Below are positions 4,896-61,346 of a DNA stretch of 64,000 bases, one piece after another; the first letter of the stretch is position 1, and every line of letters begins with the position of its first letter. Below the pieces are notes generated by a model. That model was not told the origin of the DNA, ran no database searches, and was given only the letters and a program-made list of their open reading frames with translations. This DNA comes from a virus (Duplodnaviria; Caudoviricetes). Location of the stretch: the IMG/VR virus record IMGVR_UViG_3300025362_000477; one strand, given 5' to 3'. The position numbers were made by a program, and so were the translations under genes.

Positions 4896-4944
4896 AATTT
4901 AATCCTTATATAATGTATACATTTAATTTTATTCTTTTTCATTA

Positions 4945-5484
4945 TCATCCTTTCATTAATACCATCGGTTTAATAGCAGCCATGAACTTGGGCTTATCAA
5001 AGAATTTACCAGGACATGCATTATCTTTATCCTGAGATACTTCATTATGAAGAAATATATGCCCAAAAGGTATTGAAAACCATTTCATAACAGACGCAAC
5101 TGATCGATAACCTATCTGTTGATATGCTCGTTGTGTTGGTTGAACTAATGAATAATTACCAGCTATTGCTATATGAATAGAAACATCAAATTCAGAAGGG
5201 ATATCATCATATATACATCGATAACAAAATGGAGTACACATTACAGTTTCATAATCCTGATCTATTTTATCACAAAGAAAATGAAAAGGCATATCAAATT
5301 CATCATTAAATATCCAATTATAACTTCTAAGATATGCACTTACTGATTTCTTAGAATCAACTTTAGCCCTATCCAAATCTCCAAATCGACAAGATAGATC
5401 ATGAATAATAATATATTTAAACTTTCGTGTTGTTTTCTTGAAATAAACAGGTTTATATGGAACTATCATGCTATATCCCCTCAA
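4945..5484 (-). CDS. N-acetylmuramoyl-L-alanine amidase (Amidase_2-like endolysin)
   Basis: YIIIHD, FHF, IAIAGNY, FLHNEV...CPG zinc-amidase pattern. Confidence 0.75.
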   Translation of the reverse strand: MRGYSMIVPYKPVYFKKTTRKFKYIIIHDLSCRFGDLDRAKVDSKKSVSAYLRSYNWIFNDEFDMPFHFLCDKIDQDYETVMCTPFCYRCIYDDIPSEFDVSIHIAIAGNYSLVQPTQRAYQQIGYRSVASVMKWFSIPFGHIFLHNEVSQDKDNACPGKFFDKPKFMAAIKPMVLMKG

Positions 5485-5537
5485 TTAATCTAATATTCTT
5501 TTTAAATTTATTTATTACTGAATTTACAATATATAAA

Positions 5538-6692
5538 TTATAACCGAGATTTATTCATTCTATCAATTTTATCATAAATCAATATCACTTCTTCCCAATA
5601 TAATTCCCATTCCATTCTTAACTCTTCATCATATATCCAATCTGAACCAGCAGCCTTTAATTTATCATTCATGACTTTATAACGCATACCCATTAAAGAA
5701 TTAGGATGGGGAATAACCATAACTTTATTATCTTTATAAATCAACTTATCATATAATGATTGATATTGATTTATTCTTTTATTCGTAGAATCATCAATTT
5801 TTGTTACTATAAAAGAATTAGTAGGAATATCTATCCAATTCACCATTGAACTATAATCAGCAATACCGTTAACAGATATACCATTTACATTCATCCAATT
5901 CACCATTGAACTATAATCAGCAATACCGTTAACAGATATACCATTTACATTCATCCAATTCACCATTGAACTATAATCAGCAATACCGTTAACAGATATA
6001 CCATTTATAACGACGTCATTTATATTCATCCAATTCACCATCGAGTCATAATCAACGACACCATTAACAGATATACCATTTATAACGACGCCATTCACGT
6101 TCATCCAATGAATCTTAGAACTATAATCAACGATATTAGTAACAGATATAACATGAATATCTATATTATCAACATCAACAACCAGAATACTTAATCCATC
6201 AACATCCATCATAATTTCTGGCTCATTTTCAGTCTTAAGTAAATTATATTTCGTTTTAAGTTGAACAAGTATGGGTAATAATTCTATTTTTTTATTATCA
6301 GACAAATAATCATATAAAGTAGAAATTTCCTTAATAGCCAATGATGGAACTGGATCAGCACTCAAATCATAACGTGAAAAAAATCTACCAGCAGTTATCA
6401 AATCAATATCATTTATATTACATGCCAACCATTCCATAACCTTTTTATTAATAATTGAATTATCAACAGATGATCTTAACATATCAATATCATTCAAAAC
6501 TTCAATAATATTACTTTCTGATATACCGCCTCTTGATTTTTCAACGAATAAATTTTTAGCAGTTACAATATCGTATTTCTGAGTTGATTCTTCTACATAT
6601 AAAGGTGCAATCACCCGAGCACTAGATAAACCAAACATCAACATACATAATATAAATATCATTCGTTTCATATATACCTCACAAAAACACAT
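5538..6692 (-). CDS. putative secreted protein with 20-aa tandem repeats
   Basis: Signal peptide MKRMIFILCMLMFGLSSA (likely start 6671); YSSMVNWMNVNGISVNGIAD repeats. Confidence 0.65.
   Translation of the reverse strand: MCFCEVYMKRMIFILCMLMFGLSSARVIAPLYVEESTQKYDIVTAKNLFVEKSRGGISESNIIEVLNDIDMLRSSVDNSIINKKVMEWLACNINDIDLITAGRFFSRYDLSADPVPSLAIKEISTLYDYLSDNKKIELLPILVQLKTKYNLLKTENEPEIMMDVDGLSILVVDVDNIDIHVISVTNIVDYSSKIHWMNVNGVVINGISVNGVVDYDSMVNWMNINDVVINGISVNGIADYSSMVNWMNVNGISVNGIADYSSMVNWMNVNGISVNGIADYSSMVNWIDIPTNSFIVTKIDDSTNKRINQYQSLYDKLIYKDNKVMVIPHPNSLMGMRYKVMNDKLKAAGSDWIYDEELRMEWELYWEEVILIYDKIDRMNKSRL
5833..6007. repeat. 60-bp in-frame tandem repeat (about 3 perfect copies, degenerate copies to about 6130)
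   Basis: Lines 5821, 5881 and 5941 repeat ATCCAATTCACCATTGAACTATAATCAGCAATACCGTTAACAGATATACC. Confidence 0.92.
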
Positions 6693-7329: not shown

Positions 7330-8937
7330 TTATTCACTTTTACGTTTCGGAACCCAATCTATTGTAACAGGATTCCATTTCTGTAAAGTACTATTGTGAT
7401 TCATTTCTGGACCTAAAGAATTATATCTTACAAATACAGCCCTTAAATTATGCTCATTCTGTTTCCATTGCCATGTCTCCCATGGAACACTGCACCCATC
7501 ATGAGATGGAAAATGCAAAACCGTTTCCACCACTGTATTTAGACTTATAAACTGCAAAGCTAAAGATTGAATATCTATAACACCCTCAGTTACATTCTGA
7601 TATAACATCCATTTACGAACATCTGATGCATTATAATCATCTACATAATATACTCTAGCATCCCTATCACCCAAAGTTTCTTGATGATTATCAACACCAT
7701 CCCATGGATCTCCCATAGTCTGATAATAATAAACTAGAGTATTAAGTGGCCAAGATTCCACAGAATTAGTGACAAATAATATCTTAAGTTCATAATCAGT
7801 CCAAGTACCAGGATAACCACCAGGATTTAAAGGAATTTCAATACGAATATAATATTCTAATGCGTTTGTATAAACACCTTCAATAAAACCATCTGGTCGT
7901 TCAATAGTGAAAATATCATTAGTTCGAACAGTATAAGTATTAATAAAAGCATCCAAAAATGAATTATTTATTAAATCCGGCCATGTATTTCTGAAAATAC
8001 CACCAAGAGTAATACCCCCATAAACAATCATATCATCAACTTGATAATCTAAAAATATCTGAGGTGGGTCAAACACAACAGGCTGTCCACCAAACTCACT
8101 TCCCCATCCTTGTACATGTGGATCAGTAATAACATTAGTTATTGGTGATGGTATTATATTATCCGATAATACTGGAGGTGTTCTTGCAAACTCTATACTA
8201 GTTAAATCCCAACAATTACTAACAAAAGAATTCCCAATGGATATAATTTCAGGTAACTCAACCCGAGTTAAATAATAACAACTACCAGCAAAAGAATCTC
8301 CAATTGATGTTGCTTTAGATAACCGAATATTAGTCATTGTATCACAATTATAAGCAAAGGAATCCCCGATTGATCTTGTTTGAGGTAACTCAACATCAAG
8401 TAAATAATAGCAATGACTGACAAATGAATCACCAATTGAAATTGCTTGTGGTAACTCGACACGAATCAAATGCCCACAATACCCAGCAAAAGAATCTCCA
8501 ATGGATGTTACTTGCGGTAACTCAATACTACTCAAATAATAACACTGAACAGCAAAAGAATCCCCAATTGATGCTACTTGTGGTAATTCGATACGAGTTA
8601 AAATATCACAATTATAGGCAAAAGAATCTCCAATTGATGTTAAATTTCTACTACCAACTATTACCTCTATATTATCATCATCATAAAATACATCATCTCC
8701 AACTGCAGTAATAGGAATGTTATAAAATTCATATGGAATTACAATATTAACATAACTCCCAGTATAACCCATAATAGTAGCTTTATCATTCAACACTGTG
8801 AAACTAAATACATTAGTCGGAGTAATAATGGTATCTGAATCATCATAATGGTATCGAATATCAGATATCTCTGAAGCATTACTTCTATTGAGTGTAATAA
8901 ATATAATAATACACATCAATATAATTCTCTTTATCAT
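7330..8937 (-). CDS. secreted BspA-type leucine-rich repeat (LRR_5) protein
   Basis: Signal peptide; about seven 22-aa units of L..IELPQV.SIGDSFA..C. Confidence 0.8.
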   Translation of the reverse strand: MIKRIILMCIIIFITLNRSNASEISDIRYHYDDSDTIITPTNVFSFTVLNDKATIMGYTGSYVNIVIPYEFYNIPITAVGDDVFYDDDNIEVIVGSRNLTSIGDSFAYNCDILTRIELPQVASIGDSFAVQCYYLSSIELPQVTSIGDSFAGYCGHLIRVELPQAISIGDSFVSHCYYLLDVELPQTRSIGDSFAYNCDTMTNIRLSKATSIGDSFAGSCYYLTRVELPEIISIGNSFVSNCWDLTSIEFARTPPVLSDNIIPSPITNVITDPHVQGWGSEFGGQPVVFDPPQIFLDYQVDDMIVYGGITLGGIFRNTWPDLINNSFLDAFINTYTVRTNDIFTIERPDGFIEGVYTNALEYYIRIEIPLNPGGYPGTWTDYELKILFVTNSVESWPLNTLVYYYQTMGDPWDGVDNHQETLGDRDARVYYVDDYNASDVRKWMLYQNVTEGVIDIQSLALQFISLNTVVETVLHFPSHDGCSVPWETWQWKQNEHNLRAVFVRYNSLGPEMNHNSTLQKWNPVTIDWVPKRKSE

Positions 8938-27714: not shown

Positions 27715-28624
27715 TTATATTCTCCAAGGTAGATTTAAATTCACTTATTACTAAATTTTTATTTTGTTCCCATTTATTCTTTTTAATTCTTATACACTTG
27801 AATCCATATTTCATATAATCCTCATCTTTCTGAATATCATAAGGTTTATATGTTTCATAATTATCAATAAAATGATGACGTTCATCAAATTCTATTACTA
27901 ATTTCAATTCTTCAATATACCCATCAGGAAAATATCCAATCATTCGTGGATTTCGAATTATTTTATATTGAGTATGTTTTTGTATCTCATTCAAACACGG
28001 ACGTTCCATATCACCAATATTTGGCATCAATGGTTCACCATTTAATTTTTGCATTTCAACTCTATTGATTGCTATATTTCTTAATTTCAAACGAACAGAA
28101 TATATTTGACTTGGATTTTCTACTCCATATTTATTCATGCATGTTTTCTTCTTTTTCTCTTTGATATATTTAGATTTATTAGGATTATCAACACCATATT
28201 TTTTTAAATATGAATATTTTTTTTTCTGTTTTATTTTTTCTAATTGATTTGGATTTTCTACTCCATATCTAAACATGCAAGTATCTTTTTGTTTCTGCCG
28301 AATCTCAATATTCTCACTTGGTGATCCACACCCAAATCTATCATAACAAGTTATTTTAAATTTATTCCGAACTATCAATGAATTTGAAGAACATTTATTA
28401 CTACAATATATTCGATAACCACTTACTATATTTTGATAGTATGTAGGATCCCCACATACAAGACATATATCTTCATTTTCTTTTTTAAGATATTTATCAT
28501 AATATTCTTTAGATGATAAATGATGTTTTTGTCTAAAATGAGAAACTAAACCTTTCACTAATTTAAATTCTTTACTGCAAATTTTACATTTAAGATCCAT
28601 TCTTCTCTGCCATAGTAGCACCAA
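27707..28624 (-). CDS. free-standing putative homing endonuclease (family of 258..1412)
   Basis: CKIC...H...H, KYGVENP repeats, YFPDGYIEELKLVIEFDERHH. Likely start 28600. Confidence 0.8.
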   Translation of the reverse strand: MVLLWQRRMDLKCKICSKEFKLVKGLVSHFRQKHHLSSKEYYDKYLKKENEDICLVCGDPTYYQNIVSGYRIYCSNKCSSNSLIVRNKFKITCYDRFGCGSPSENIEIRQKQKDTCMFRYGVENPNQLEKIKQKKKYSYLKKYGVDNPNKSKYIKEKKKKTCMNKYGVENPSQIYSVRLKLRNIAINRVEMQKLNGEPLMPNIGDMERPCLNEIQKHTQYKIIRNPRMIGYFPDGYIEELKLVIEFDERHHFIDNYETYKPYDIQKDEDYMKYGFKCIRIKKNKWEQNKNLVISEFKSTLENINA

Positions 28625-29723
28625 GATCCCCTAATTCACAAGCTCCACCAGAACATGCTTCTCCAGCACTACCAAATCCCAATGAACCATACTCATCCTC
28701 ATAACATTCTGACCAATCAATATCAACATAATCTCGTTTAAGATCACACCAAATTTTCCAGTTATGAACATCCTTTAAACAATAAGTCATCAAACGTTCA
28801 TTACCATCAAAATATCTTACAGCAAATTGTTTGGCCCTTCTTATCCATTCAATCTTATCAACATAATTAGATACTTCTGATTTCAACCATGCATTTAATA
28901 ACTTAATTGGAGATTTTGGGGAAAGTCCTAAAGCTATCCAATTAGCGCCATTCATCTGACAATCAGATTCAATCTTAATTTTCAATTTATTAGAATCTAA
29001 TATCTCCCCAACACCAAGAACACAATCACTAGCAGCCCATAAATCATTATTAAATGCGCGTAACCCATCCACTATCAACCCACTCGCGAACATAGAAGCG
29101 TTACCATGCATCCTAACCATTTCGTATGGAGTATATACCGCAGTGAAGGGTGCCTGTGGGTAATCCTTATCACCCGATACTGGAAGAAATGATATACCAG
29201 CAAACCACATTCTATTCCGATATACGAACTTTTCTACATCATCCCATTCATCGGGTCGAACATGGATAGTATTAGAAACATTATGTTTCAACCAAGGACG
29301 ATTTAATGAAGTATATCGGGTTCCGGCTTCTACCCAATTTTGTTGGGTAAGCCTAACATTTTCGAGTAATTCTAATGCACCTACAGTATTTTTTGTTTTT
29401 GCCCCATCAGGAACTTCACATAAGAAAGTAATAATTTTATCAGTATCAGACCATACTGATTGTTCAACTGCAGACGGATTAAATGTTTCAAAATATTGCA
29501 GTGGAGTTTCTATCTTATTCGATTGAACTCTTCTAAAATATCTCTTAGCATGATGAGGATGAATTCCAGACGCTGTTCCTAAAATACAACTTGTTGTATT
29601 ATGAGTCACTGTTCGATTAGATAATTGATATGTATGTGAACCGCCGACCTCAATGTCTACAGTCATTTGTTTCTTCTTATTCAATAATGGTTTTAATATA
29701 ATTTTCATAAAATCCCCCGTCAT
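28590..29723 (-). CDS. nrdJ: class II (B12-dependent) ribonucleotide reductase, C-terminal part preceded by a 37-aa C-intein
   Basis: MKIIL...TVDIEV...YQLSNRTVTHN|TTSCILGTASGIHP; DYPQAPF; C-terminal CSGGAC. Start 29708. Confidence 0.9.
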   Translation of the reverse strand: MTGDFMKIILKPLLNKKKQMTVDIEVGGSHTYQLSNRTVTHNTTSCILGTASGIHPHHAKRYFRRVQSNKIETPLQYFETFNPSAVEQSVWSDTDKIITFLCEVPDGAKTKNTVGALELLENVRLTQQNWVEAGTRYTSLNRPWLKHNVSNTIHVRPDEWDDVEKFVYRNRMWFAGISFLPVSGDKDYPQAPFTAVYTPYEMVRMHGNASMFASGLIVDGLRAFNNDLWAASDCVLGVGEILDSNKLKIKIESDCQMNGANWIALGLSPKSPIKLLNAWLKSEVSNYVDKIEWIRRAKQFAVRYFDGNERLMTYCLKDVHNWKIWCDLKRDYVDIDWSECYEDEYGSLGFGSAGEACSGGACELGDLGATMAEKNGS

Positions 29724-30747
29724 TTAAGTTATAAAATTCTTGTTCCCATATAATTAACACATTATATCCCAATTCTTTCAATGTATCAATTCTTTTCTGA
29801 TCAGATTTCCATATATCAGAAGCTGTCATTTTCATAGTGGGATGATAAGAATCAGAATTCCATTGAAGTGGATTACAATGCCAATAATCTCCAAAAAATT
29901 CAATTATTGTATTGTAATCATCTAAAAAAATATCAACAAAATAAGACAATATTCGTTTAGAATCAGTATATCTTATATGATATTCATCCAATATTTTTAA
30001 AATTTCTTTCTCTGGTTTTGATTGGCTCCCTGATTTCCATATTTGAGATTTAACCATCTTTTCATATCTTTTAGTTCCCTCTTTTTCACCATATTTATCA
30101 ATAAAAAATACTAAATCATGAGTTGAATTTTTCTTCAATATCTCCGCAGCTTCTATTTCCGTATACCCCCGTTTGATCCAATACTGTTTATTGAAATAAC
30201 TATTAGTTCTTAGTTTTGAAATATATTTTAGATATCTTTCACACCCTTTAACATCCCCGTATCGATCAACAAATGAATTTAATGTCTGGGTAGATCTAAA
30301 AGAATGTTTTTTCTTAATATCTTTAATCTCTACATCATCGTATCCATTCAATCTCAATGATGCTTCACTAACTGATAATTTTTTATTTTTTTCTTTATAT
30401 CTCAATAATCCATCATCTTTACCATATTTATCAACATACCATTGAAGAGTACCCCGCTTTTTATAATTTAACAATACTTTATTCCATTTTTTCAATCCTA
30501 TTTCATCGCCAAACTTTCGAATATAATAATCTTTATCAAAACCTTTCAATGGTAATATATCATCTAAAGTATAAGTAGGCGGTAAAAATTGAAGATAAAA
30601 CTCAAAACAAGATGATTTTGGATTTCTATCTGGAAAATTTTTTTGTTTGAATTCTCGCATAGATATCTGCAAATCACATAATTTTTTAAATTTATCTAAT
30701 TCCAATTCAAACTCAGTAATTTTGTTTTTTGCTAGGATTACCTTCAT
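29677..30747 (-). CDS. Vsr-like homing endonuclease between the split-intein halves of nrdJ
   Basis: KYG..EG..RY repeats; YFVDIFLDDYNTIIEFFGDYWHCNP. Confidence 0.8.
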   Translation of the reverse strand: MKVILAKNKITEFELELDKFKKLCDLQISMREFKQKNFPDRNPKSSCFEFYLQFLPPTYTLDDILPLKGFDKDYYIRKFGDEIGLKKWNKVLLNYKKRGTLQWYVDKYGKDDGLLRYKEKNKKLSVSEASLRLNGYDDVEIKDIKKKHSFRSTQTLNSFVDRYGDVKGCERYLKYISKLRTNSYFNKQYWIKRGYTEIEAAEILKKNSTHDLVFFIDKYGEKEGTKRYEKMVKSQIWKSGSQSKPEKEILKILDEYHIRYTDSKRILSYFVDIFLDDYNTIIEFFGDYWHCNPLQWNSDSYHPTMKMTASDIWKSDQKRIDTLKELGYNVLIIWEQEFYNLNDGGFYENYIKTIIE

Positions 30748-30807
30748 AAATTAAACCTCTGTTAAATTAATATAATTATATACTTTTAATTTAATTCATA
30801 TCATAAA

Positions 30808-32538
30808 TCAAAAAGATACTATATCATCACCGACATCCAATTCATCAGCACGCTTCCATAATCCATTAGTTAATTTAAACTTATGATTAGGAGTACATGT
30901 ATATATTGATCCATCTTCAAATGGAATATTGTACACATCAGATTCACCATTAACATATAATTTTGTAACCTTTTCCAATTCATCATTCTCATTATAAATA
31001 TATAATGGATATTTCAAATCTAACCATATATCTGATTGATTTTCATAATCCTTTAAATCATAACCCTGTTCATTAAATATGAGTTCTAAACTCTTATCAC
31101 CATCAATAGTTCTAACTTCACTATCTATAGAAAGACATCCCGCTGGTTTAACGCAAGTTGCTCTAGCACATTTATTAATCCCAAGAATAGCAGATATCCG
31201 CTCATTCTCAGATAATATTAATTTAGCTCCTTGTCTTTGTAATTTAGGATCAAATGCAATTTCAGGAACATCGGACATACCAGTCATTGATACACCAAGT
31301 AAAGCTTCTTTCTCTGCAATAAGATGACTCACCTCACCAAGATAATCAAATTGAGTATATTTAGCTTGAATAGTGCCAAGAATAGCTCCTGCCTTACACG
31401 CTTCTAAAAATCGTTCTGGACTAGTAGCTTTTTTAAGATTAATTTCACATAAGTTACAAAATTGCCATCCAGATAGAATATCATTATTACCCTGAATTCT
31501 AATTTCATCAGCAAATTTCACTCTAAGTTCATCTGTCAAATCAAGTTTAGCAAACATACCAATTTCAACACATGGATTATATAAAGCATCAACATTATCA
31601 GCCCACACAAATCCAGGTTCACCAAATTCTTTAACTCTATGCATCAATTTTGAAAATGTTTCTCTATCAGTACCATTTCTAATTAGAACAGCTGAATTAT
31701 TAGATCTAGCTCTATGTTTAAATTCTTTTCTCCATGATCCAGTCTTTGAATCTGCCATTTCATCATCTTCTGGTGAGAATAAACAAATGGTTGCACTACG
31801 TCTAATACCTCCTGATAATACTGCTTCTGAAGAATGCATTATAATATCATAAGCATTAATTGGCTTCAGTTTATCTTGATGTTTAGAACATATATCCATT
31901 AAATGAGCAATAGCATCTAAAGATTCATGCAATTTATCTGGACCCGGAGCCTTAGCCCCTGACGATAACGGTGAACCTTTTGGTCTAATTTCACTATAAT
32001 CAAAATTAACTTTTTTACCAAAATATTCTGGAAATGGAGAATTTGCATCAACAAAATAAGATGAAAGTAAAACCCCAAGAGCATCAGCCCATCCTTCGAT
32101 AGTGTCAGGAATAGTATATGTTATTTCATCTTCTTGATTGATTGACCTAATACCCGGAAGTTTATTTACATGACAGTATTGTACTGAAAATCCTACTCCA
32201 CAACCACATAAAAGTAACCACATTGATTCTTGAAAGAATCTAGGACGATCACAATATGAAACAGTACAATTATATAACCTAGCATTCTTTTTCAAAATAG
32301 GATCACCACCAAATTGAAGTGCTCGTTGAGAACCAAGTACTCTTTTTTGCATAACCATTTTTTTAGCAAATGCAAAATCATCTTTAATATTATGAATCAT
32401 ATCAGAACCAAGATACTCTTCATGCATATTAAATACTCTATCTACTTGTTCTTGCCAAGTTTCACGTCGATGTAATTCTGGACAATATCTCGCATATCGA
32501 GCAAATCGAGTATATTCCTGTAAAGCTGTAATAGACAT
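30808..32538 (-). CDS. nrdJ: class II ribonucleotide reductase, N-terminal part ending in a 109-aa N-intein
   Basis: LGSQRALQFGG, NCT, GGIRRSA, NPCVEI, FCNLCEIN, TCVKPAG|CLSIDSEV...CTPNHKF...RADEL.VGD. Confidence 0.93.
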   Translation of the reverse strand: MSITALQEYTRFARYARYCPELHRRETWQEQVDRVFNMHEEYLGSDMIHNIKDDFAFAKKMVMQKRVLGSQRALQFGGDPILKKNARLYNCTVSYCDRPRFFQESMWLLLCGCGVGFSVQYCHVNKLPGIRSINQEDEITYTIPDTIEGWADALGVLLSSYFVDANSPFPEYFGKKVNFDYSEIRPKGSPLSSGAKAPGPDKLHESLDAIAHLMDICSKHQDKLKPINAYDIIMHSSEAVLSGGIRRSATICLFSPEDDEMADSKTGSWRKEFKHRARSNNSAVLIRNGTDRETFSKLMHRVKEFGEPGFVWADNVDALYNPCVEIGMFAKLDLTDELRVKFADEIRIQGNNDILSGWQFCNLCEINLKKATSPERFLEACKAGAILGTIQAKYTQFDYLGEVSHLIAEKEALLGVSMTGMSDVPEIAFDPKLQRQGAKLILSENERISAILGINKCARATCVKPAGCLSIDSEVRTIDGDKSLELIFNEQGYDLKDYENQSDIWLDLKYPLYIYNENDELEKVTKLYVNGESDVYNIPFEDGSIYTCTPNHKFKLTNGLWKRADELDVGDDIVSF

Positions 32539-49768: not shown

Positions 49769-52700
49769 ATGCTTAAAAGTTTTGCAGAATGTTCAAAATG
49801 CCCGTTACAAAAGTGTGAAGGTAAAGTGTGTAAAACTAATTGTATAAAAAACATCGCAGACGTAGAGATTTTTTATCTTGTTGATGATGTTAAATGGTGG
49901 GATGATATTCAATATCATGCAGAGGGACATAATCAGAAGTATTTGATTACTTCTCCAGTATTATGTAAATCTAATGAAACGCTATCACATAACGAATTTG
50001 AAGATGTGATGGATATTTGTAAAATAAACGCTAATACAATAATAAAGAAGTGTGAACCCAGAACAGTCATTGCAGTAGGTATATATTCATGTGCAGTAAA
50101 CGCTAAACCCGGAACTGAAATTATTGTTTACAGAGACTTTGAGGAGTTTACTGAAATGATGATAGAAACAGACGATATGATGGATCAATTAGGAGAAGAT
50201 TTTGATATTCTCAATGAGGATATTCCAAACAAACCAGTATATGTAGATCAATCAGATAGAACTGATATTAAATGGGGATCTAAAGATGAACCCTATATGT
50301 TTACAATTCCCGATAAATATTACACTGATGAATATAGATTAATAGATGTTCAGATGATTGCTAGTCAGTGTAGAGTGATTTATATCTTTAGAAATAAAGA
50401 TAATAAGAAAATTTTCTATGAAGTTCCTGGAAAACAGAATGATTTTTATTGGTATGAGTCTCCGAGTACTGAAAATCGAAATATTGAATCAATGGATCGA
50501 TTAGAATTGAAGATTGATAATTATAAGAATAGACTTACTGATGCTCGAGGATATGGAGGAGATGTGAATTTAGCATCTCAGCATAGTGTTGATTATTGGA
50601 GACAAAACAAAGGCGAAGCACCAGTTATAAGTAAAAATGCTCTTCATTTTGATATTGAAGTATATACTTATAAAGATAAGATCTTTCCGGATCCAACTAG
50701 TGCATTATATCCAATCAATGCTGTTTCATTCAGGATGAATGATAATACTGATACTGAACATGTGTATCTTTTGAAGATTGACAAACATATTGATCCTAAA
50801 ATAGATGCTTTGGTTGCATCTAAGAAATATCCAAATCTAACTGTATTCACATCTGAATATACTATGTTAACGGCTTTTATTTCTAAGATAAGATCGATGG
50901 ATCCTGATTTTATATGTGGATGGAATAGTAATTCATTTGATATTCCTTATATTGTTGGTAGAATGAAGAAACTGAATATTCCTATGACGGCTTTATCTCC
51001 ATTTGGAAATATATATGCTGATATAAGAGGGAAGGTTATTCTTACAGGTTTTGTTCCAATATGTCAACTTCAATTATATAAAGAGTTGACCTATATTACT
51101 TTACCATCATATAAATTAGACGCCGTTGCTAAAAAAGAGAAAGTTGGTCGAAAAGTATCATATACTGGAAATTTAGATGGATTGTATAATAATAATATTG
51201 ATGTGTTTGTTGAATATTCTTTGACTGATACTGTACTATTAAAAGGAATTGAAGATGCAACTCAGCATATTACAATTCAGGATGAACTTCGTCAGATTAC
51301 AACTAATTCTCATGCAGGTGCATCATCAACATTAGGTCAGGCAGAAGGTTTATTCATGACTTCAATGAAGAATGATGGTTTAATAGCAAGAAATAATCAA
51401 CATGATGCCGTTAAAGAAAAATTTCCTGGTGCTTATGTATTTGATGCTAGAGGTGGTTTATATGAAGGTCTATTATGTGATTTTGATTTTACTTCTTTGT
51501 ATCCCAGTATTATTAATACTTGGAATATTGGTCCGGATACATTCTTAATGAAATTAAAGAATGAAGATGATATGTTTAATCTAATATATGATAGATCTAA
51601 ATTAAAAGATAAACAAATTGAGGTTACTCGAGATCCAATTCATAATAAGATTTCAAAAAAGATGACCTTGAAAGAACTTGAAGTATTTATTGATGAAAAT
51701 GAAGCTAATTTAAATATCACTGGATCAATATTCAGTGGTCATGATAAGCATGTTAGTATATTCTTTACTGTAATTGATTTTCTATTTAAAAGTCGCAAGA
51801 TTTATAAAAAGAAAATGCTTGAAGCTAAAGAAGCTGGTGATATGGTAATGGCTAGTATATATAATGGAAAACAGATGGCTTATAAGATCCTAGCCAATTC
51901 ATTGTATGGAGCTATGGGTAATGAACATTTTAGATTTTATAATATTGATATTGCAAAGAGTATTACTCTTGCTGGACAAGAACTTTTAAAATATTGCGCA
52001 GTTCATTGTGATGAATATTTGGTTAAACGAGGAGATATACCTAAATTCAAGATGAATATTGATTTTCTTGATAAGGTAAAATCATTAACTGATGTTCTTT
52101 ATGGTGATACTGATTCAATCTTTGTTTATCTCACTAATTATTTGAAAGATAAAGGAATTGTAGTTAAAAATTCTAAGGAAGTGCAAGATGAGATTCAAAA
52201 AATTCAAAATTTTGTAAATGAAGATTCATTGAATCCTTTTCTTGCTTTACATAATTTAAAGAAGGTCCATTCAATGATTTTCTTAAAAAATGAATTTTTA
52301 TTCTCGAAATACTATACTCTGAATGGTAAGAAACATTATGCTGCTAAAGTGATTTCCCAGGAAGGAAAAGATATTTCATTCACTGAGATCAAAGGTCTGG
52401 AGATGAAGCGCAGTGAAATCCCGTCGAGATCTCAAAAATTTCTTACTACAGTTCTTGATATTATTCTTCAAGATGACATAAAAAAGAGTGATATTAAAAT
52501 TCAAGTTGATAAATTAGTAGATATTACTAGAGAAGAGATGATGGAATTAGTTGAAGAACGAGATAACTCAATTGTTCGAGTTGTATCTTATTCTAAACCA
52601 TTGAATCAGTATAAAAAATTACCCCAGCATATCAAAGCCATGCTTATGTGGAATTGTATTATGGGTGAGGATTTTAGATATGGTGCAAAAGGAAAGTTAT

Positions 52701-52945
52701 GGAATATTCAAGGTATTGATTTAAATAAAGCACCTGAGTCAGTTAAAGTTAATTTTAATGAGAAATTTTTGAAAAATTATTGTCATAAAGATTTAAATTG
52801 TATATGTGTTCCTGAAGATGTGGATAAATTACCTGAATGGTTCATTCCTGATATGAAAAAATTGATTTCTTATTGTTGTGATGATCGTGTTGGTAATTTG
52901 ACTGAACCATTATGGAAAGAATCCGAATCAATTTTATTATTTTAG
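49769..52945 (+). CDS. polB: family B DNA polymerase with an N-terminal UDG-family-4-like domain
   Basis: ExoI FDIE, ExoII GWNSNSFDIPY, ExoIII YSLTD, motif A DFTSLYPS, motif B KILANSLYG, motif C YGDTDS. Confidence 0.96.
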   Translation: MLKSFAECSKCPLQKCEGKVCKTNCIKNIADVEIFYLVDDVKWWDDIQYHAEGHNQKYLITSPVLCKSNETLSHNEFEDVMDICKINANTIIKKCEPRTVIAVGIYSCAVNAKPGTEIIVYRDFEEFTEMMIETDDMMDQLGEDFDILNEDIPNKPVYVDQSDRTDIKWGSKDEPYMFTIPDKYYTDEYRLIDVQMIASQCRVIYIFRNKDNKKIFYEVPGKQNDFYWYESPSTENRNIESMDRLELKIDNYKNRLTDARGYGGDVNLASQHSVDYWRQNKGEAPVISKNALHFDIEVYTYKDKIFPDPTSALYPINAVSFRMNDNTDTEHVYLLKIDKHIDPKIDALVASKKYPNLTVFTSEYTMLTAFISKIRSMDPDFICGWNSNSFDIPYIVGRMKKLNIPMTALSPFGNIYADIRGKVILTGFVPICQLQLYKELTYITLPSYKLDAVAKKEKVGRKVSYTGNLDGLYNNNIDVFVEYSLTDTVLLKGIEDATQHITIQDELRQITTNSHAGASSTLGQAEGLFMTSMKNDGLIARNNQHDAVKEKFPGAYVFDARGGLYEGLLCDFDFTSLYPSIINTWNIGPDTFLMKLKNEDDMFNLIYDRSKLKDKQIEVTRDPIHNKISKKMTLKELEVFIDENEANLNITGSIFSGHDKHVSIFFTVIDFLFKSRKIYKKKMLEAKEAGDMVMASIYNGKQMAYKILANSLYGAMGNEHFRFYNIDIAKSITLAGQELLKYCAVHCDEYLVKRGDIPKFKMNIDFLDKVKSLTDVLYGDTDSIFVYLTNYLKDKGIVVKNSKEVQDEIQKIQNFVNEDSLNPFLALHNLKKVHSMIFLKNEFLFSKYYTLNGKKHYAAKVISQEGKDISFTEIKGLEMKRSEIPSRSQKFLTTVLDIILQDDIKKSDIKIQVDKLVDITREEMMELVEERDNSIVRVVSYSKPLNQYKKLPQHIKAMLMWNCIMGEDFRYGAKGKLWNIQGIDLNKAPESVKVNFNEKFLKNYCHKDLNCICVPEDVDKLPEWFIPDMKKLISYCCDDRVGNLTEPLWKESESILLF

Positions 52946-52989: not shown

Positions 52990-53151
52990 ATGAAAAATAA
53001 TCAAATAACTATTGATATTAATCCAGACATTCGATATGCAGCTAAATTATTAGCTAAAAAATTTGATGTATCTTTAAAATATATTATTCGTATAGCATTA
53101 ATTGATATTTTGAAAAAACATAATTGTGATATTCCCGTGGAAGAATTATGA
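52990..53151 (+). CDS. 53-aa ribbon-helix-helix-like protein (not in ORF track)
   Basis: MKNNQITIDINPDIRYAAKLLAKKFDVSLKYIIRIALIDILKK...; AAGGA RBS; ATGA overlap with the next gene. Confidence 0.7.
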   Translation: MKNNQITIDINPDIRYAAKLLAKKFDVSLKYIIRIALIDILKKHNCDIPVEEL

Positions 53152-53978
53152 AATTATGTGAATGCGGTTGTGGTAAAGAAGTTAATTCCAAATCTGCTCG
53201 ATTTATATCTGGACATAATATTAAAAAAGGACATAAATGGAAACCAAGAACTGATGAACATGCTAAAAAAATTATAAATACTAGAGTTGAAAATAAAAGA
53301 TTATTTGATTTAAATATTCCGTTTTCATTATGTAAATGTGGTTGTGGGAAACGAGTTTCAAAAAGAACTAATGTTTATATTGAAGGTCATCATCCTAGAA
53401 TCGCAGGGTTTAAAGATCATAAACATAGTCAAAAAACTAAAGACTTATTTTCAAAAATTTATAAAAGCCAAGAATTTAAAGATAAAGTATTTAAAACTAT
53501 GATTGATCGTTATGGAGTTAAACATGCTTTTCAAAATCCAAAATTTATTAAAAAAGCTAATAAGACTTATTTTGAAAAAACAGGATATCATAATCCATCA
53601 AAAAATCCTTTAGAGATCGCAAAAGCTTTAAAGACTAGAAGAAAAACTAATTTAGAACGAGGTATTTGGATACCAGATGATCAATTACCTATGTTTCAAC
53701 TTTACTATAGAAGAGTGTGGCATTATACCAATATAGCAGCGAAGTTAAAATATGATGATGAAAAATTATCAAAAAGAAAACTATGTGGTGTTAAAAATGG
53801 TTTACAATTAGATCATAAGTTTTCTATTCGAAAAGGATATGAAAATAATATTTTACCGCATATAATAGGTAGTCAATACAATATCAATTTAATTTCATGG
53901 GAAGATAATAGATTAAAAAATATCAGTTGTTCTATAACAAAAGAAGAACTTTTTGAACACGTTAACAAGGAAAACTAA
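53148..53978 (+). CDS. putative homing endonuclease (CxCGCG + NUMOD3-like + HNH-like)
   Basis: Two CxCGCG...GH units, KHSQKTK, LQLDHKFS...NLISWEDNRLK. Confidence 0.75.
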   Translation: MKLCECGCGKEVNSKSARFISGHNIKKGHKWKPRTDEHAKKIINTRVENKRLFDLNIPFSLCKCGCGKRVSKRTNVYIEGHHPRIAGFKDHKHSQKTKDLFSKIYKSQEFKDKVFKTMIDRYGVKHAFQNPKFIKKANKTYFEKTGYHNPSKNPLEIAKALKTRRKTNLERGIWIPDDQLPMFQLYYRRVWHYTNIAAKLKYDDEKLSKRKLCGVKNGLQLDHKFSIRKGYENNILPHIIGSQYNINLISWEDNRLKNISCSITKEELFEHVNKEN

Positions 53979-55796: not shown

Positions 55797-56402
55797 ATGA
55801 AAGATTTTATAGTATTGGATACTGAAACCAAAAAACATGCTGATCAGATTCAGGGTGGATGGGATAATATTGAAAAGATGGAACTTGCAACTGAAGTTAC
55901 ATATTCATCTCAATTAGATCGATATGTTTTTTGGAAACCTTCTCAAAAAAAAGAATTATGCAAATATTTACATGATCAATTAGTGGTTACTTTTAATGGG
56001 ATGATGTTTGATACTAAACTATTGTTAGGTAATGATAGAATTCTTCAAGATAATGGAGTGACTGAAAATGATAAATATAGATGGTATAATGCTGATATTT
56101 ACGTTGAGATTTGGCGTCACATTTTGAACATGGATCGGTCCAATTATAATATGATACTCAAAAAAATAGGTGAGCAGAAATTCCCTAGAAACGTATTCAA
56201 TTTAGAATCAGTTGCTAGCGCTACTCTAGGAATACCAAGAACTGGTAAAGGGGACCAAGCACCCGATCTCTTTCAGCAAGGAAAGTTGTTAGAGTTATTT
56301 CAATTTAATTTACAAGATGTGAGAATGATTAAATCATTGTATCAGTTTATACAAAAGAGACAATATATCATTTCTGGTAGTTTCGATGTTGTGTCTTTTT
56401 AA
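55797..56402 (+). CDS. RNase H-fold DEDD 3'-5' exonuclease-like protein (YprB-like)
   Basis: VLDTET, FNGMMFD, FNLESVA, FNLQDV. Confidence 0.75.
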   Translation: MKDFIVLDTETKKHADQIQGGWDNIEKMELATEVTYSSQLDRYVFWKPSQKKELCKYLHDQLVVTFNGMMFDTKLLLGNDRILQDNGVTENDKYRWYNADIYVEIWRHILNMDRSNYNMILKKIGEQKFPRNVFNLESVASATLGIPRTGKGDQAPDLFQQGKLLELFQFNLQDVRMIKSLYQFIQKRQYIISGSFDVVSF

Positions 56403-56449
56403 TAGGATACGTTTTCTTACTTAAAGGAATAAAATTTAAAGGAGTTAAT

Positions 56450-56665
56450 ATGTTTGAAAGTGGAGATAATATGTTAGATCAATTATGGGTTGAAAAATTT
56501 AGACCTAGAACAATTGATGATGTCGTATTGAATGCTGATCAAAAGGAATTTGTTGAAAGGTGTTTAGCGAAGCAGGAAATACCTCACATGGCGTTTTTTG
56601 GACCACCTGGATCCGGGAAATGCCATGCAGGTGATGAAACGATTACAATATATGTAGAAGATTAA
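56450..56665 (+). CDS. clamp loader AAA+ subunit, N-terminal part + 14-aa N-intein
   Basis: WVEKFRPRTIDDVV, PHMAFFGPPGSGK|CHAGDETITIYVED*. Confidence 0.9.
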   Translation: MFESGDNMLDQLWVEKFRPRTIDDVVLNADQKEFVERCLAKQEIPHMAFFGPPGSGKCHAGDETITIYVED

Positions 56666-56709
56666 AATAATTCCATATCCAGCATGAATAAATATAAAGG
56701 ATTGCTAAT

Positions 56710-57999
56710 ATGAAATGTAAAATTTGTTCAAAAGAATATGCGAAATTATCATCATTCATTCAGCATATTATTAAAGGTCATAATATATTATTTTATGATT
56801 ATTGTTTAGAATATGACGATAGTTTAATTAGATGTCAATATTGTAAAAATATAGTCGATCGTGGATGTTCTTATTCATTCTGTGGTAGTAAACATTGTAG
56901 ATCATTTAAAATGCGATTAAGTAGGTACCCATCAGTTAATGATATTTTTAATATCTATGATCCGCTATATTGGATTTCTTTCTATGATAATGATATCATT
57001 AAAACCAATGAAAAATTATCATATTTAAAAAATTTTGATGTGTTTTTGAAATCTGACCAATATTTAAAATTGTTTAAAAGTGAAAATTTAGAATGTGATT
57101 TCTTTCAATTTATTGATAGAATTAAAGATGGGTTAATAAATATTGAAGATTTAAAAAAATATAAAAATATGAATTCTATTGGACGATATAACGTTTTGGG
57201 TTTTAGTGAAGATGTTTTTAAAATTTTAAACCCGTATTTTACCACTAATAAAGAATCATATATTGATCGACATGGAAAAAATAAATGGGAACAATATTCC
57301 AGTAAATTAGGTAGTACTCAAGTAATATCTTGTTGGCAAACTAAATACTGGATAAATAAAGGTTATTCATATGAAGATGCAAAAAAATTAATTTCAAAAA
57401 ATGCAAGTAGAGATATTAATTATTTTATAAATAAATATGGAAAAGAAAAAGGAAAACAGTCATATCAAAATATGATCGAAAAAAGAAAATTTTCTTTTAG
57501 TTTAGAGGGTTATTGTAAAAAATATGGTTCAGATGGATTTAAAAAATACCATGAATGTATTAAAAAGAAGACTTCATGGGTTCCAAATATACAAAGTAAA
57601 GTATCATTAGATTGTATTTCTGAGTTATATACATTATTACCCAATAATATAAAATGCATATATGAAGAACCAATTGAATTTTACGTGTGTGATTTTTATT
57701 TTCCAGAATTGAAATGCGTTATAGAATTTTATGGTGATTACTGGCATCAAAATCCATTGATATCTAATATCGGAGATCGATATCATATTGAAAAATGTCA
57801 TGATAATCATAAAAGACGATCTGAATGTTTATTGAATTCAGGTCGAGTTGATAAAATTATCATTGTGTGGGAATTAGCATATACTAAATCTAAAACTGAA
57901 TGTTTATTAAATATATTAAAATGTTTTAAATTACACCACAAATATAATGAATTAAATTTTCAAAATGGGAATATATTATATAATAAGGAGTTAATATAA
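56710..57999 (+). CDS. Vsr-like homing endonuclease between the split-intein halves of the clamp loader
   Basis: CKIC..H..H, KYGKEKG repeats, YVCDFYFPELKCVIEFYGDYWHQNP. Confidence 0.8.
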   Translation: MKCKICSKEYAKLSSFIQHIIKGHNILFYDYCLEYDDSLIRCQYCKNIVDRGCSYSFCGSKHCRSFKMRLSRYPSVNDIFNIYDPLYWISFYDNDIIKTNEKLSYLKNFDVFLKSDQYLKLFKSENLECDFFQFIDRIKDGLINIEDLKKYKNMNSIGRYNVLGFSEDVFKILNPYFTTNKESYIDRHGKNKWEQYSSKLGSTQVISCWQTKYWINKGYSYEDAKKLISKNASRDINYFINKYGKEKGKQSYQNMIEKRKFSFSLEGYCKKYGSDGFKKYHECIKKKTSWVPNIQSKVSLDCISELYTLLPNNIKCIYEEPIEFYVCDFYFPELKCVIEFYGDYWHQNPLISNIGDRYHIEKCHDNHKRRSECLLNSGRVDKIIIVWELAYTKSKTECLLNILKCFKLHHKYNELNFQNGNILYNKELI

Positions 58000-59219
58000 T
58001 GAAAAAAATAACAATTAATTTTAAAGATTTGTTTGATATCTATTCAATATCAGATAAATCCAATGATGTTCATGAATTATCAAAAAAGATTTTTGTAAAA
58101 GATCCAAGTGGTAAATTGGTACCTGTTAGAGGTATCATTAAAAAAACCGATGTGGATATGTGTAAATTTACAACAGAAAATAATATATCTCGAAAAATGG
58201 CATATGGGCATTTACTAAAATGCACAACTGGTTTTAAACAATTAAAAGATATAGATAATAATGATGATATTTATATTTATAATAATCAATCTACGAAGAT
58301 TAAATCAATAGAACCGTGTAACGATATTGATGTTGCTTATGATATTTCTTTAGATGCACCCCATGAATATGTTACACCTGATAATTTAATTCATCATAAT
58401 ACAACAATAGCCAGAATCATTGTTGATGCATTGATTCAAAATGATTCTGATGTGTTAGTAATGAATGGATCCGATAATACTGGTGTTGAATCTATGCGAA
58501 CAACAGTAGCTGGATTCTTAAAATCACCGCCATATCAGGCTAAATTGAAGATTGTATATATTGATGAATTTGATTACACAACTCAGAATGCTCAAGCGGT
58601 TTTGCGTAATATGATGGAAGCATATTCTTCAACGGGTAGATTTATAATAACCGGCAATTACTGGTCTAAGGTAATGGAACCAATTCAATCTCGATTCACA
58701 TTATATGAGATGAAGACCTTACCAAAGGAATTTGTAATTGAATATGCAAAGAATATTCTTACTAAAGAGAAAGTAGAATTTGATGAACAGTCTGTTGAAT
58801 TAATCGTTACTAGTTTATTACCTGATGTGCGAAAAGTTGTAAATACTTTGCAAAAAAATACAATTAATAAGAAACTAAAGAAGATTGATGTAAATACTAT
58901 TATCAGTAATGAAAAGAAAATTAGTGGCTTGTTGGTTCAAATAGGTGAACAGATGGGTAGTGCTTCAGAAAAAGCAACTATTAATAGAAACATACCTCAG
59001 ATAACGGAGTTATTAAATACTGGATCAGAACCAGACTATCTCCATATCTATCAGACATTGTTTTTTCATCCAGAGTTACCAGCATGGGCTAAGATTAAAG
59101 TAAATGAATATTCAAATAAGCATAATTCATGTGTAAATCCAGTTAGTCATTTCATGGCAATGGTATATGATGTAGTTCAATCTGGTATGACATTCTTTAA
59201 TTTATTTGGCAAAAAATAA
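57999..59219 (+). CDS. 134-aa C-intein + clamp loader AAA+ subunit C-terminal part
   Basis: AYDISLDAPHEYVTPDNLIHHN|TTIARII, MNGSD, IVYIDEFD, AQAVLRNMME, FIITGN, PIQSRF. Confidence 0.92.
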   Translation: MKKITINFKDLFDIYSISDKSNDVHELSKKIFVKDPSGKLVPVRGIIKKTDVDMCKFTTENNISRKMAYGHLLKCTTGFKQLKDIDNNDDIYIYNNQSTKIKSIEPCNDIDVAYDISLDAPHEYVTPDNLIHHNTTIARIIVDALIQNDSDVLVMNGSDNTGVESMRTTVAGFLKSPPYQAKLKIVYIDEFDYTTQNAQAVLRNMMEAYSSTGRFIITGNYWSKVMEPIQSRFTLYEMKTLPKEFVIEYAKNILTKEKVEFDEQSVELIVTSLLPDVRKVVNTLQKNTINKKLKKIDVNTIISNEKKISGLLVQIGEQMGSASEKATINRNIPQITELLNTGSEPDYLHIYQTLFFHPELPAWAKIKVNEYSNKHNSCVNPVSHFMAMVYDVVQSGMTFFNLFGKK

Positions 59220-59255
59220 AAAGGGGAGAGTGAATTAACACTCATCCCCTTTTTT
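59219..59255. terminator. bidirectional intrinsic terminator
   Basis: AAAAGGGGAGAGTG-AATTAA-CACTCATCCCCTTTTTT between convergent genes. Confidence 0.75.
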
Positions 59256-59261
59256 AAAATT

Positions 59262-59738
59262 CTAAGTGTTTATTTTTTTGGCCCATCCTTGGGCCGTTTT
59301 AATCCACCACTTAGAATTTGGAGGGCACCACCGTCTAGCAAAGGACACTAGTCCTTTACCTCGATATCTACTCTTGATAGTGCCCGCAGCCCATTCAGCT
59401 TGTAGGCGGAGGGATTTTTTGAAATTCCCTGCATACCTCTTCGCTGGATGGTTTTTAGTACCATCACCGACACCAAACTGCATGCCATTAGATGGGAATG
59501 GCTTTCCATTCTTGTCATATCGGGTATGTTTTCCATACTCATTTATTCTAAGCATACCAGAATTTTCCATTCGACGGGTTATGAATAACAACTCCGTTTC
59601 GATTGGAGTTAATTCATACTGTCTCGCTACTTGCGAGATAATATTCACTTCCGATTGTGGGAAGTGGTTTAGATACTTTTCGTGACTTGCTTCACATAAC
59701 AATGTGAAACATATCATTCCGAGGATCATTATTTTCAT
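59262..59738 (-). CDS. putative secreted lysozyme-like protein
   Basis: Signal peptide; RRMEN..., QFGV, QAEWAAGTI, FARRWCP pattern. Confidence 0.45.
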   Translation of the reverse strand: MKIMILGMICFTLLCEASHEKYLNHFPQSEVNIISQVARQYELTPIETELLFITRRMENSGMLRINEYGKHTRYDKNGKPFPSNGMQFGVGDGTKNHPAKRYAGNFKKSLRLQAEWAAGTIKSRYRGKGLVSFARRWCPPNSKWWIKTAQGWAKKINT

Positions 59739-60362: not shown

Positions 60363-61346
60363 ATGGACATAGATAAACTCAAACACATTCTTATAGAAAA
60401 TAAAATATACGTTTCTAAAAATTCAAAAAATATCATATGTAAATGCCCGTACTGTGGTGACCATCCAGATCCTAATAAAAAAGGACATTTATATGTATCA
60501 ATAAATTCATCATTGCCGGTTGCTCATTGTTGGTTTTGCAATGGTGCTTGGTCGATTCCTCTTCTTATTAAAGACTTGACTGGTGATAAACTCCTATATA
60601 AAGAAGTTATTAGTGATGAAGAACTTCAAAGTTCATATCAAAAAACTAAACGATATTCTGCTAAAAAACGAACTACTATTTATAAAGTCCCAGATATTTC
60701 CAAAGATAAATTTTCAGAAAAGAAAATGTATATTCGAAAAAGAACAGGAAATAAAGTGACAGCAGAAGAAGTTCCGAATCTGATTTTAAACCTTATAGAA
60801 TTTATTCATATGAATAATTTAGATATCATTGGGGAAGGGAAATTGATATCTGATTGGGAAGCTGATTTATTACATAGAAACTTTGTTTTCTTTTTGAGTG
60901 CCAATCATTCTTTATTGTACTGTAGAAGTATTGATGATAATGCAAAATTTAAATTTAAGAAGATTCCGTTACAAAGTGACCCATTATTATTACTGGATTA
61001 TTGGAAAATTCCTATGTGTGAATACGGAAATACAATAGTCTTATCAGAGGGAAATTTCGATATTTTAAGTGAATATGGATTTGATTCATTAGGATTAAAA
61101 GATAATGTAAGATTGTTTGCAAGCGGAAATACTTTCTCATATGGCTCTTTAATTAAATCAGTTTGTTATGATGAGAGTATTTATAAGGCAGATGTGATAA
61201 TTTTGAGCGATACTGATAAACCTGGTTATTGGTATAAAAAGATGTTGCGAGAGAATAGTCATATAATTAAAAGTTGTAAAATTTACATGAATAAAAGAGG
61301 GAAAGATTTTGGTGTATTTCCACCAATTCCCAGTCAGATTATTTAA
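60363..61346 (+). CDS. DNA primase-like protein (zinc finger + TOPRIM)
   Basis: CPYCGD...HCWFC zinc finger, LSEGNFD, ILSDTD. Confidence 0.8.
   Translation: MDIDKLKHILIENKIYVSKNSKNIICKCPYCGDHPDPNKKGHLYVSINSSLPVAHCWFCNGAWSIPLLIKDLTGDKLLYKEVISDEELQSSYQKTKRYSAKKRTTIYKVPDISKDKFSEKKMYIRKRTGNKVTAEEVPNLILNLIEFIHMNNLDIIGEGKLISDWEADLLHRNFVFFLSANHSLLYCRSIDDNAKFKFKKIPLQSDPLLLLDYWKIPMCEYGNTIVLSEGNFDILSEYGFDSLGLKDNVRLFASGNTFSYGSLIKSVCYDESIYKADVIILSDTDKPGYWYKKMLRENSHIIKSCKIYMNKRGKDFGVFPPIPSQII

Follow-up and report, generated by a model that had tools for sequence, protein, structure and literature searches.

A phage clamp-loader gene fractured at its Walker A motif, probably by a split intein with a 14-residue N-terminal fragment

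We studied 64,000 nucleotides of DNA from a virus (Duplodnaviria; Caudoviricetes) catalogued as IMG/VR record IMGVR_UViG_3300025362_000477. We refer to this whole stretch as the window. Between positions 56450 and 59219, a gene resembling phage clamp loaders of DNA polymerase is broken in two. The break lies inside a candidate split intein. Its N-terminal fragment (IntN) has 14 amino acids (aa) and its C-terminal fragment (IntC) has 134. A free-standing gene for a putative homing endonuclease sits between the halves. We call the flanking genes the N-gene and the C-gene, and the parts of the host protein that they encode the N-extein and the C-extein. The features of the locus are as follows.

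56439..56444, plus strand: Shine-Dalgarno sequence AAGGAG of the N-gene, read from the sequence, 5 nt before the ATG at 56450
56450..56620, plus strand: N-extein, 57 aa, predicted N-terminal part of a gp44/RFC-type clamp-loader AAA+ domain, ending with Walker A GPPGSGK
56621..56662, plus strand: IntN, 14 aa (CHAGDETITIYVED), with Cys1, block A, strands β1-β2 and a two-residue turn; stop codon at 56663-56665
56710..57999, plus strand: free-standing putative homing-endonuclease gene, 429 aa, with its own weak Shine-Dalgarno sequence
57999..58400, plus strand: IntC, 134 aa, with β3 and helix α1 (MKKITINFKDLFDIY), block B AYGH, block F YDISLDAPHEY and block G LIHHN
58401..59219, plus strand: C-extein, 272 aa plus stop, from Thr+1 (TTIAR), predicted rest of the AAA+ domain (Walker B VYIDEFD), lid and collar
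59223..59255, no strand assigned: terminator-like hairpin and T-run between the C-gene and the convergent open reading frame (ORF) 59262-59738, read from the sequence

The N-gene (56450-56665, plus strand) encodes 71 aa. According to both the ORF list and the raw sequence, its product ends ...FFGPPGSGK|CHAGDETITIYVED and is followed directly by the stop codon. A spacer of 44 nt leads to the endonuclease ORF. The C-gene (57999-59219, plus strand) encodes 406 aa, with AAGGAG 8 nt upstream, and its ATG overlaps the endonuclease stop codon (TAATG). Residues 1-134 of its product end ...PDNLIHHN and the next residues are TTIAR. The two intein fragments are separately translated; IntN has 14 aa and a stop, while IntC has its own ribosome binding site (RBS) and ATG. 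Beyond the C-gene, a terminator scan lists the inner stem of the hairpin on the minus strand, at 59243-59228. An earlier reading of this DNA (the original prediction) had given coordinates for the locus and the two intein pieces, the 14-aa IntN, the 134-aa IntC ending IHHN|TTIAR and a 429-aa endonuclease ORF with its own RBS. These were exact when checked against the ORF list and raw sequence. The same reading had noted AYGH where block B of inteins has TxxH, and this is indeed the sequence.

The host protein was identified by profile comparison. The phrog_168 family ("clamp loader of DNA polymerase") matches the N-gene with profile positions 5-55 (E 7.9e-14) and C-gene residues 135-391 with profile positions 56-306 (E 8.9e-36). 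Positions 55 and 56 meet at the junction and, hence, the exteins join without gap or overlap. The Walker A motif GPPGSGK|T is complete only after joining, and a Walker B motif (YIDEFD) is present. For comparison, an intein-free relative (L011) on a 321,650-bp IMG/VR contig has a single 327-aa ORF that reads GPPGSGK-TTTARI across the junction. The C-extein is 46% identical to this relative. The N-extein aligns with it too, and with clamp loaders that contain contiguous inteins. The insertion is in frame, and its removal restores the conserved motif as found in L011. This agrees with the earlier proposal of an insertion at the Walker A GK|T site with seamlessly restored exteins. In a tblastn search, the C-gene matched annotated clamp loaders in 2394 phage records, always from query residue ~135. 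Pfam matches of the C-extein to DNA_pol3_delta2 and Gp44_lid were weak and below the curated cut-offs. Judged by homology, the split gene encodes a gp44/RFC-type clamp-loader ATPase. By analogy with T4 biology, such a gene would be essential.

We compared a profile of 29 IntC-type sequences with solved inteins. Matches were to gp41-1 (6qaz; E 1.2e-9), DnaE inteins (E about 1e-8), Pho RadA (E 1.4e-7), Spl DnaX (E 9.5e-7), CatC (E 5.7e-5) and VidaL (6vgv; E 0.006). Of 50 family members, 28 match Pfam Intein_splicing, and most have either Intein_splicing or Hint. Sequence blocks of inteins are also in place. Cys1, directly after GSGK, provides the position-1 nucleophile and begins block A. Blocks F and G read YDISLDAPHEY...LIHHN|TT, which puts Thr at the +1 position. 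H71, H133 and N134 never vary in the three alignments of split members. D115 is equally constant in two of these alignments and present in at least 90% of sequences in the third. Where block B usually has Thr, members of the window's clade have Ala (AxxH); in the family as a whole this residue is Ser in most cases and Ala or Gly in some. The AxxH form of block B is a stable trait, a point absent from the original prediction. Other clamp loaders (L001, P0056, P0061 and P0075) carry contiguous mini-inteins of this family, likewise inserted at GK|T. The first of these is a 464-aa clamp-loader ORF with a contiguous intein in the huge-phage record LR756508.1 (uncultured phage, 484 kb). In a side observation covering L001 484-2349 and 3740-5134, the clamp-loader intein of that record is accompanied by a PolB ORF that also appears to bear an intein (Cys-start ... 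VVHN|TDS).

Word-indexed searches added three C-genes (405-406 aa) and two N-genes of 71 aa, and their contigs gave more. Gene arrangements at the related loci are listed below.

L002: N-gene of 72 aa; 491-aa endonuclease between the halves; C-gene of 406 aa
L004: N-gene partial (contig end); 439-aa endonuclease between the halves; C-gene of 405 aa
L003: N-gene not on the contig; endonuclease between the halves, 3' end only; C-gene of 405 aa
L005 (413-1866): N-gene of 71 aa; 20-bp spacer with an RBS and no endonuclease between the halves; C-gene of 405 aa

IntN has exactly 14 aa in all five N-genes of the clade (the window and four others, one truncated by a contig end), at 53-72% identity. 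All five share Cys1, His2, Gly4 and Glu6. The three full-length 71-aa N-genes also agree at Ile8, Ile10 and Tyr11, and the last residue is Asp or Glu. IntC opens every one of six C-genes (the window and five others), at 43-54% identity. The phrog_168 matches and this recurrence in diverged relatives show that the arrangement is no accident. Four IntC sequences aligned together have invariant A68, H71, Y114, D115, P121-Y124, L130-N134 and T135-T136.

The L005 locus is informative. It keeps both halves with no endonuclease between them and, hence, the split intein persists without the endonuclease. Either the endonuclease was lost, with the split intein kept, or it was not yet gained. This locus also bears on a different explanation for the layout, in which a group I or II intron, or translational bypass, takes the interruption out at the RNA level and translation yields one polypeptide. 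Phage genes often contain group I introns that bear an endonuclease ORF, and Vsr-like endonucleases occur in introns too (PMC2677866). However, the halves of L005 are just 20 nt apart, so there is no room for a group I intron. In the window, no Rfam family was found in 56000-59600 at E up to 1. Furthermore, the flanking in-frame intein blocks are under selection at the amino-acid level, and RNA splicing would not preserve them. We regard RNA-level removal as scarcely credible. The cis RNA-splicing alternative raised with the original prediction is, in practice, excluded.

Selection was estimated by the Nei-Gojobori method against four relatives. For IntC, pN was about 0.30-0.38 and pS was 0.50-0.65. 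Ratios of pN to pS were similar for IntN and the exteins. We take this as a rough sign that IntC is under purifying selection. The estimate matters for another account of the locus, in which the endonuclease insertion destroyed the clamp loader, and the phage uses another, its own or the host's. In favour of this account, the genome bears many endonuclease insertions. By tblastn, no second clamp-loader gene was found in the 64-kb window (best other E 1.4), which is part of a 220,894-bp contig. The second intact copy that the original prediction named as grounds for refutation is thus absent from the window, the part of the contig that the search covered. Other evidence argues against a dead gene. 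In five loci, independent and diverged, both halves have kept an open reading frame and undamaged start signals, and pN is well below pS in the intein and the exteins. L005 has both intein fragments intact without an endonuclease. We consider loss of the gene very unlikely.

Next to these comparisons, we modelled the fold of a contiguous relative. The P0061 intein was predicted with AlphaFold2 from a 33-row alignment and forms a HINT domain (pLDDT 96, pTM 0.88). Template modelling (TM) scores were 0.70-0.80 against the RadA, TFIIB, VidaL and gp41-1 inteins, and 0.77-0.80 for RadA, TFIIB and VidaL. Counting the Cys as residue 1, the model has β2 at 7-12, a two-residue turn at 13-14 and β3 at 15-20, which leads directly into helix α1. 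When the window intein is aligned to this model, its break falls after residue 14, at the turn between β2 and β3. The IntC segments MKKITINF and KDLFDIY map to β3 and the start of α1. For VidaL and PolB16, the S1 site has been defined as "immediately following β2" (PMC13014065). The model therefore places the split of the window intein at S1, as in VidaL and PolB16. Among contiguous relatives, the β2-β3 turn has 2 residues in P0061 and P0075, and carries ~20 inserted residues in P0028 and P0056. Such variation in length fits a permissive insertion point.

Starting from the established anatomy, homology, conservation and fold, we infer how the fragments associate, how they splice and what part the endonuclease plays in homing. 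On this basis, the product of the fractured clamp-loader gene is very probably made whole by class-1 protein trans-splicing. An ancestral mini-intein would have lain between Lys and Thr of the Walker A P-loop. Its tight turn after the second β-strand (S1) would then have received a free-standing gene for a Vsr-like endonuclease. The outcome would be three co-oriented genes, encoding the N-extein with IntN, the endonuclease, and IntC with the C-extein. IntN would supply strands β1-β2 by docking with IntC, which is almost complete by itself. The rebuilt HINT domain would splice via Cys1, the block B His, the block F Asp and His, the terminal His-Asn and Thr+1. Joining of GSGK to TTIAR would yield a 329-aa clamp loader (57 + 272) in which the Walker A motif GPPGSGKT is whole. 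The role of the endonuclease is presumably to drive homing of the element into alleles that have no intein or no endonuclease.

Several points weigh against this reading. Trans-splicing is deduced from the conservation of catalytic residues, and one position of the usual set, that of the block B Thr, holds Ala in the window's clade. The selection estimate is rough because dS is saturated. The second-copy search covers the 64-kb window of a contig that has ~157 kb more. Finally, complex prediction with the window's own two chains gave a score of 0.58, against 0.14 for the best control, and this was graded as weak support for the reading. The predicted interface pairs residues 56-71 of the partner with IntC residues 1-9, 29-34, 65-71, 111-116 and 124-127. 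The mark used for these scores was passed by 51 of 78 solved complexes and by 2 of 108 mismatched pairs. Scores of 0.60 or less were obtained for 5 of the 78 solved complexes, yet for all 4 mismatches that passed. In addition, the score may reflect memory because inteins are well represented among solved structures.

The block B substitution, seen in the whole clade, would also suit an intein whose fragments dock without splicing, leaving the clamp loader as a non-covalent two-chain protein. There is a precedent in the NrdA of an Aeromonas phage. As described in PMC3045599, that protein is fractured by an endonuclease and assembles non-covalently via interaction domains derived from the mobile element. 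However, docking would leave ~148 intein residues in the Walker A motif, between the Lys and Thr that bind ATP and Mg, which is hard to reconcile with ATPase function. Moreover, Cys1, the block B His, the block F Asp, His-Asn and Thr+1 are kept across ~50% sequence divergence, and docking needs none of these. Assembly by docking is improbable, and trans-splicing is the reading that we prefer.

We then considered the gene between the halves. In the 429-aa ORF, a C2H2-like zinc finger at the N terminus and a Vsr-like nuclease domain at the C terminus (~residues 320-400) are separated by a middle region. The zf-C2H2 match is weak and below the Pfam cut-off, and the N-terminal finger is common to homologous ORFs. 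Motifs in the C-terminal domain are D328, E339, GDYWH (342-346) and VWE (386-388). Homologues share an invariant Asp, an Ile-Glu, a Gly-x-x-x-His motif and a nearly invariant Trp; the latter two appear in the window as GDYWH and VWE. Dassa et al. also noted an invariant Glu in their Vsr-like homing endonucleases (PMC2677866). Searching the PDB with the single sequence gave nothing meaningful, and a four-sequence profile matched Vsr at E 0.2-0.3. A profile of ten C-terminal-domain sequences matched the E. coli Vsr structures 1odg, 1vsr and 1cw0 at E 4.5e-4 to 6e-4, aligning Vsr Asp51 and the FWH motif. The C-terminal domain is thus Vsr-like, with a predicted nuclease role. This supports the earlier proposal that the halves of the split intein flank a Vsr-like endonuclease. 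Homologues occupy the same position in L002, L004, L003, L006, L009 and L010. The GC content is 23% for the endonuclease and 25% for IntC, compared with 32-36% for the exteins and 31% for the window. AT-rich endonuclease and IntC sequences fit an invading element.

The window has a second fractured gene at 28590-32538 on the minus strand. Here, the N-half of an NrdJ-type ribonucleotide reductase reads KPAG|CLSID... at its junction with a canonical 109-aa IntN. Next come a 356-aa endonuclease and then an IntC ending TVTHN|TTS. This endonuclease is a paralogue of that in the clamp-loader gene (BLASTP E 8e-19). Hence, one endonuclease lineage has split two inteins, at canonical and S1 positions, in one genome. 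Two further free-standing endonuclease-like ORFs were seen in L002. These, at 4689-5708 and 7905-8798, combine DUF7487 with an MTES_1575/DUF559 nuclease domain and lie between replication genes; their positions are unoccupied in the window. BLASTP of the window endonuclease against a DUF7487/DUF559 neighbour in L002 was not significant.

The intein belongs to a wider group. When 1.84 billion representatives were searched exhaustively by HMMER, 64 matched the 134-aa IntC. About 50 of these are S1-split IntC-plus-extein genes, because the match starts at protein residue 1-10. Most matches with a recognisable junction have HN, then Thr or Ser, then a P-loop ATPase. Host proteins include many clamp loaders, along with DnaB/gp41 helicases, RecA/UvsX, ResIII/DEAD helicases and PhoH. 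Where upstream DNA existed, N-genes end GK|C..., and the same type of endonuclease lies between the halves. IntN has 22 aa in a UvsX gene (L009), 28 aa in a helicase gene (L010), 24 aa in L026, 29-32 aa in other clamp loaders (L012, L014, L015 and L025) and 29-30 aa in L016, L017 and L018. The bare 14-aa IntN core is found only in the window's clade. The contig with the fractured UvsX gene has a further oddity. At L009 3789-5123, a DnaB_C-type gene ends ...TTKSGK|SVICSEKH... and then stops; this may be the N-half of yet another split intein.

The window intein belongs to a large, apparently undescribed metagenomic family of S1-split P-loop inteins, a membership that was not part of the original prediction. 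We lean slightly towards a joint reading of these data. The 14-aa IntN, with Cys1/Thr+1, block B Ala and no tail past the β1-β2 hairpin, would be the shortest natural IntN and fully active. It would be one tip of a large undescribed family inhabiting clamp loaders, gp41/DnaB, UvsX/RecA, SF2 helicases and PhoH. One zinc-finger/Vsr-like endonuclease lineage would have fractured this family repeatedly at S1, and its paralogue would have fractured the NrdJ intein of the same genome at the canonical site. If so, many natural and possibly mutually orthogonal split-intein pairs of peptide size would be on hand from cold or saline environments.

The neighbourhood of the locus is a phage replication module, with PolB at 49769-52945 and primase at 60363-61346. 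Just downstream of PolB, a 276-aa ORF (53148-53978) weakly resembles the PHROG homing-endonuclease family phrog_3339 (E 1.6e-6), a further sign that the module is densely invaded. Identical copies of the locus occur on contigs of four salt-lake metagenome runs, and one of these runs may be the source of the window. All runs carrying the locus are labelled salt lake metagenome, a type of habitat that also yielded the published atypical inteins AceL and VidaL. Salt-lake contigs contained no alternative allele without the endonuclease or the intein; contigs drop rare variants, so this absence means little. A nucleotide search of phage records with the 3.1-kb locus gave no match. Two short stretches of the window, 57920-57965 (the 3' end of the endonuclease) and 57977-58011 (the RBS and start of IntC), recur with 4 mismatches on other contigs. 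These contigs are much deeper (up to 317x) and occur in all four salt-lake runs. One possibility is that the recurring stretches are the conserved termini of related elements carried by other phages.

Few natural split inteins have an N-fragment as small as a peptide, and those that do are in demand. An IntN that can be made by solid-phase synthesis allows labels or modified segments to be attached to proteins. VidaL, AceL-TerL/Cat and PolB16 are already used for labelling and semisynthesis. The dozens of natural relatives described here (IntN 14-32 aa), in varied host proteins, form a panel from which fast or orthogonal pairs might be drawn. For phage biology, the clamp loader joins the list of fractured replication genes. 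A homing endonuclease appears to have entered an intein at the S1 turn, not the canonical site, and the split outlasts loss of the endonuclease if L005 is read in that way. The concept of split inteins and fractured genes is unchanged. The value of the system lies mainly in its use as a protein-labelling tool, and is moderate.

Finally, we compared the locus with known systems. Natural atypically split inteins have an IntN of 15-37 aa (PMC13014065). VidaL has 16 aa (S1; PMC13014065), and AceL-TerL and GOS-TerL have 25 aa and 37 aa (both S2). The 15-aa IntN of PolB16 OarG has been called "the shortest characterized to date" (PMC10189870). Hence, the 14-aa IntN is a marginal record, by one residue, in line with the expectation that it would lie at the short extreme. 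Full-text literature searches found no split intein in a clamp loader or gp44, though intein databases may still list one.

VidaL (PDB 6vgv; Burton et al. 2020, via PMC13014065) is similar in several ways. According to that account, it is naturally split, cysteine-dependent, S1-split and from a saline-lake metagenome, with a very short IntN. Its fold matches the P0061 model with TM 0.77/0.79. Unlike the window intein, VidaL has an IntN of 16 aa and, according to the same account, a different host protein; the sequence relation is distant (profile E 0.006). VidaL activity is reported there as measured (t1/2 about 1 min), whereas that of the window intein is predicted from sequence. PolB16 OarG (PMC10189870; PDB 8cpn) likewise has a natural S1-type atypical split and an IntN of 15 aa. 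However, it is cysteine-less (Ser1), lies in a PolB gene from a sheep-gut metagenome, and its block B His is dispensable. The window intein has Cys1/Thr+1 and an invariant block B His, and the fold comparison, made with the contiguous-relative model, gave a lower TM of 0.67. AceL-TerL, GOS-TerL and Cat are also natural atypical splits with a short IntN, from metagenomic phage genes of saline lakes or the ocean. They differ in being split at S2, after helix α1, with an IntN of 25-37 aa, and in interrupting the large terminase subunit.

The fractured genes of Dassa et al. 2009 (PMC2677866) have the same layout: one half with IntN, a free-standing Vsr-like (or GIY-YIG) endonuclease gene, and IntC with the other half. 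They are mostly phage DNA-metabolism genes, and one locus has no endonuclease, as for L005 here. In contrast to the window, the hosts named (gp41, IMPDH, DnaE, NrdA, NrdJ, DNA ligase and terminase) include no clamp loader. Furthermore, all but one of those inteins are split at the canonical endonuclease-insertion site, whereas the window intein is split at S1. Inteins in P-loops are known as contiguous inteins in RFC-S, DnaB and MCM (PMC4760082). Archaeal RFC small-subunit (RFC-S) and Pho RadA inteins share with the window intein an insertion point in the Walker A P-loop, their hosts being orthologous or related ATPases (PMC4760082), and Pho RadA is the best structural match to the contiguous-relative model (TM 0.77-0.79). 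Unlike the window intein, they are contiguous and cis-splicing, reside on archaeal chromosomes, and have neither a split nor a free-standing endonuclease gene. We conclude that the arrangement, an S1-split intein in a fractured phage gene, is of a kind already known. What distinguishes it is membership of a large family for which we found no description, a marginal record for IntN length and a new host protein.

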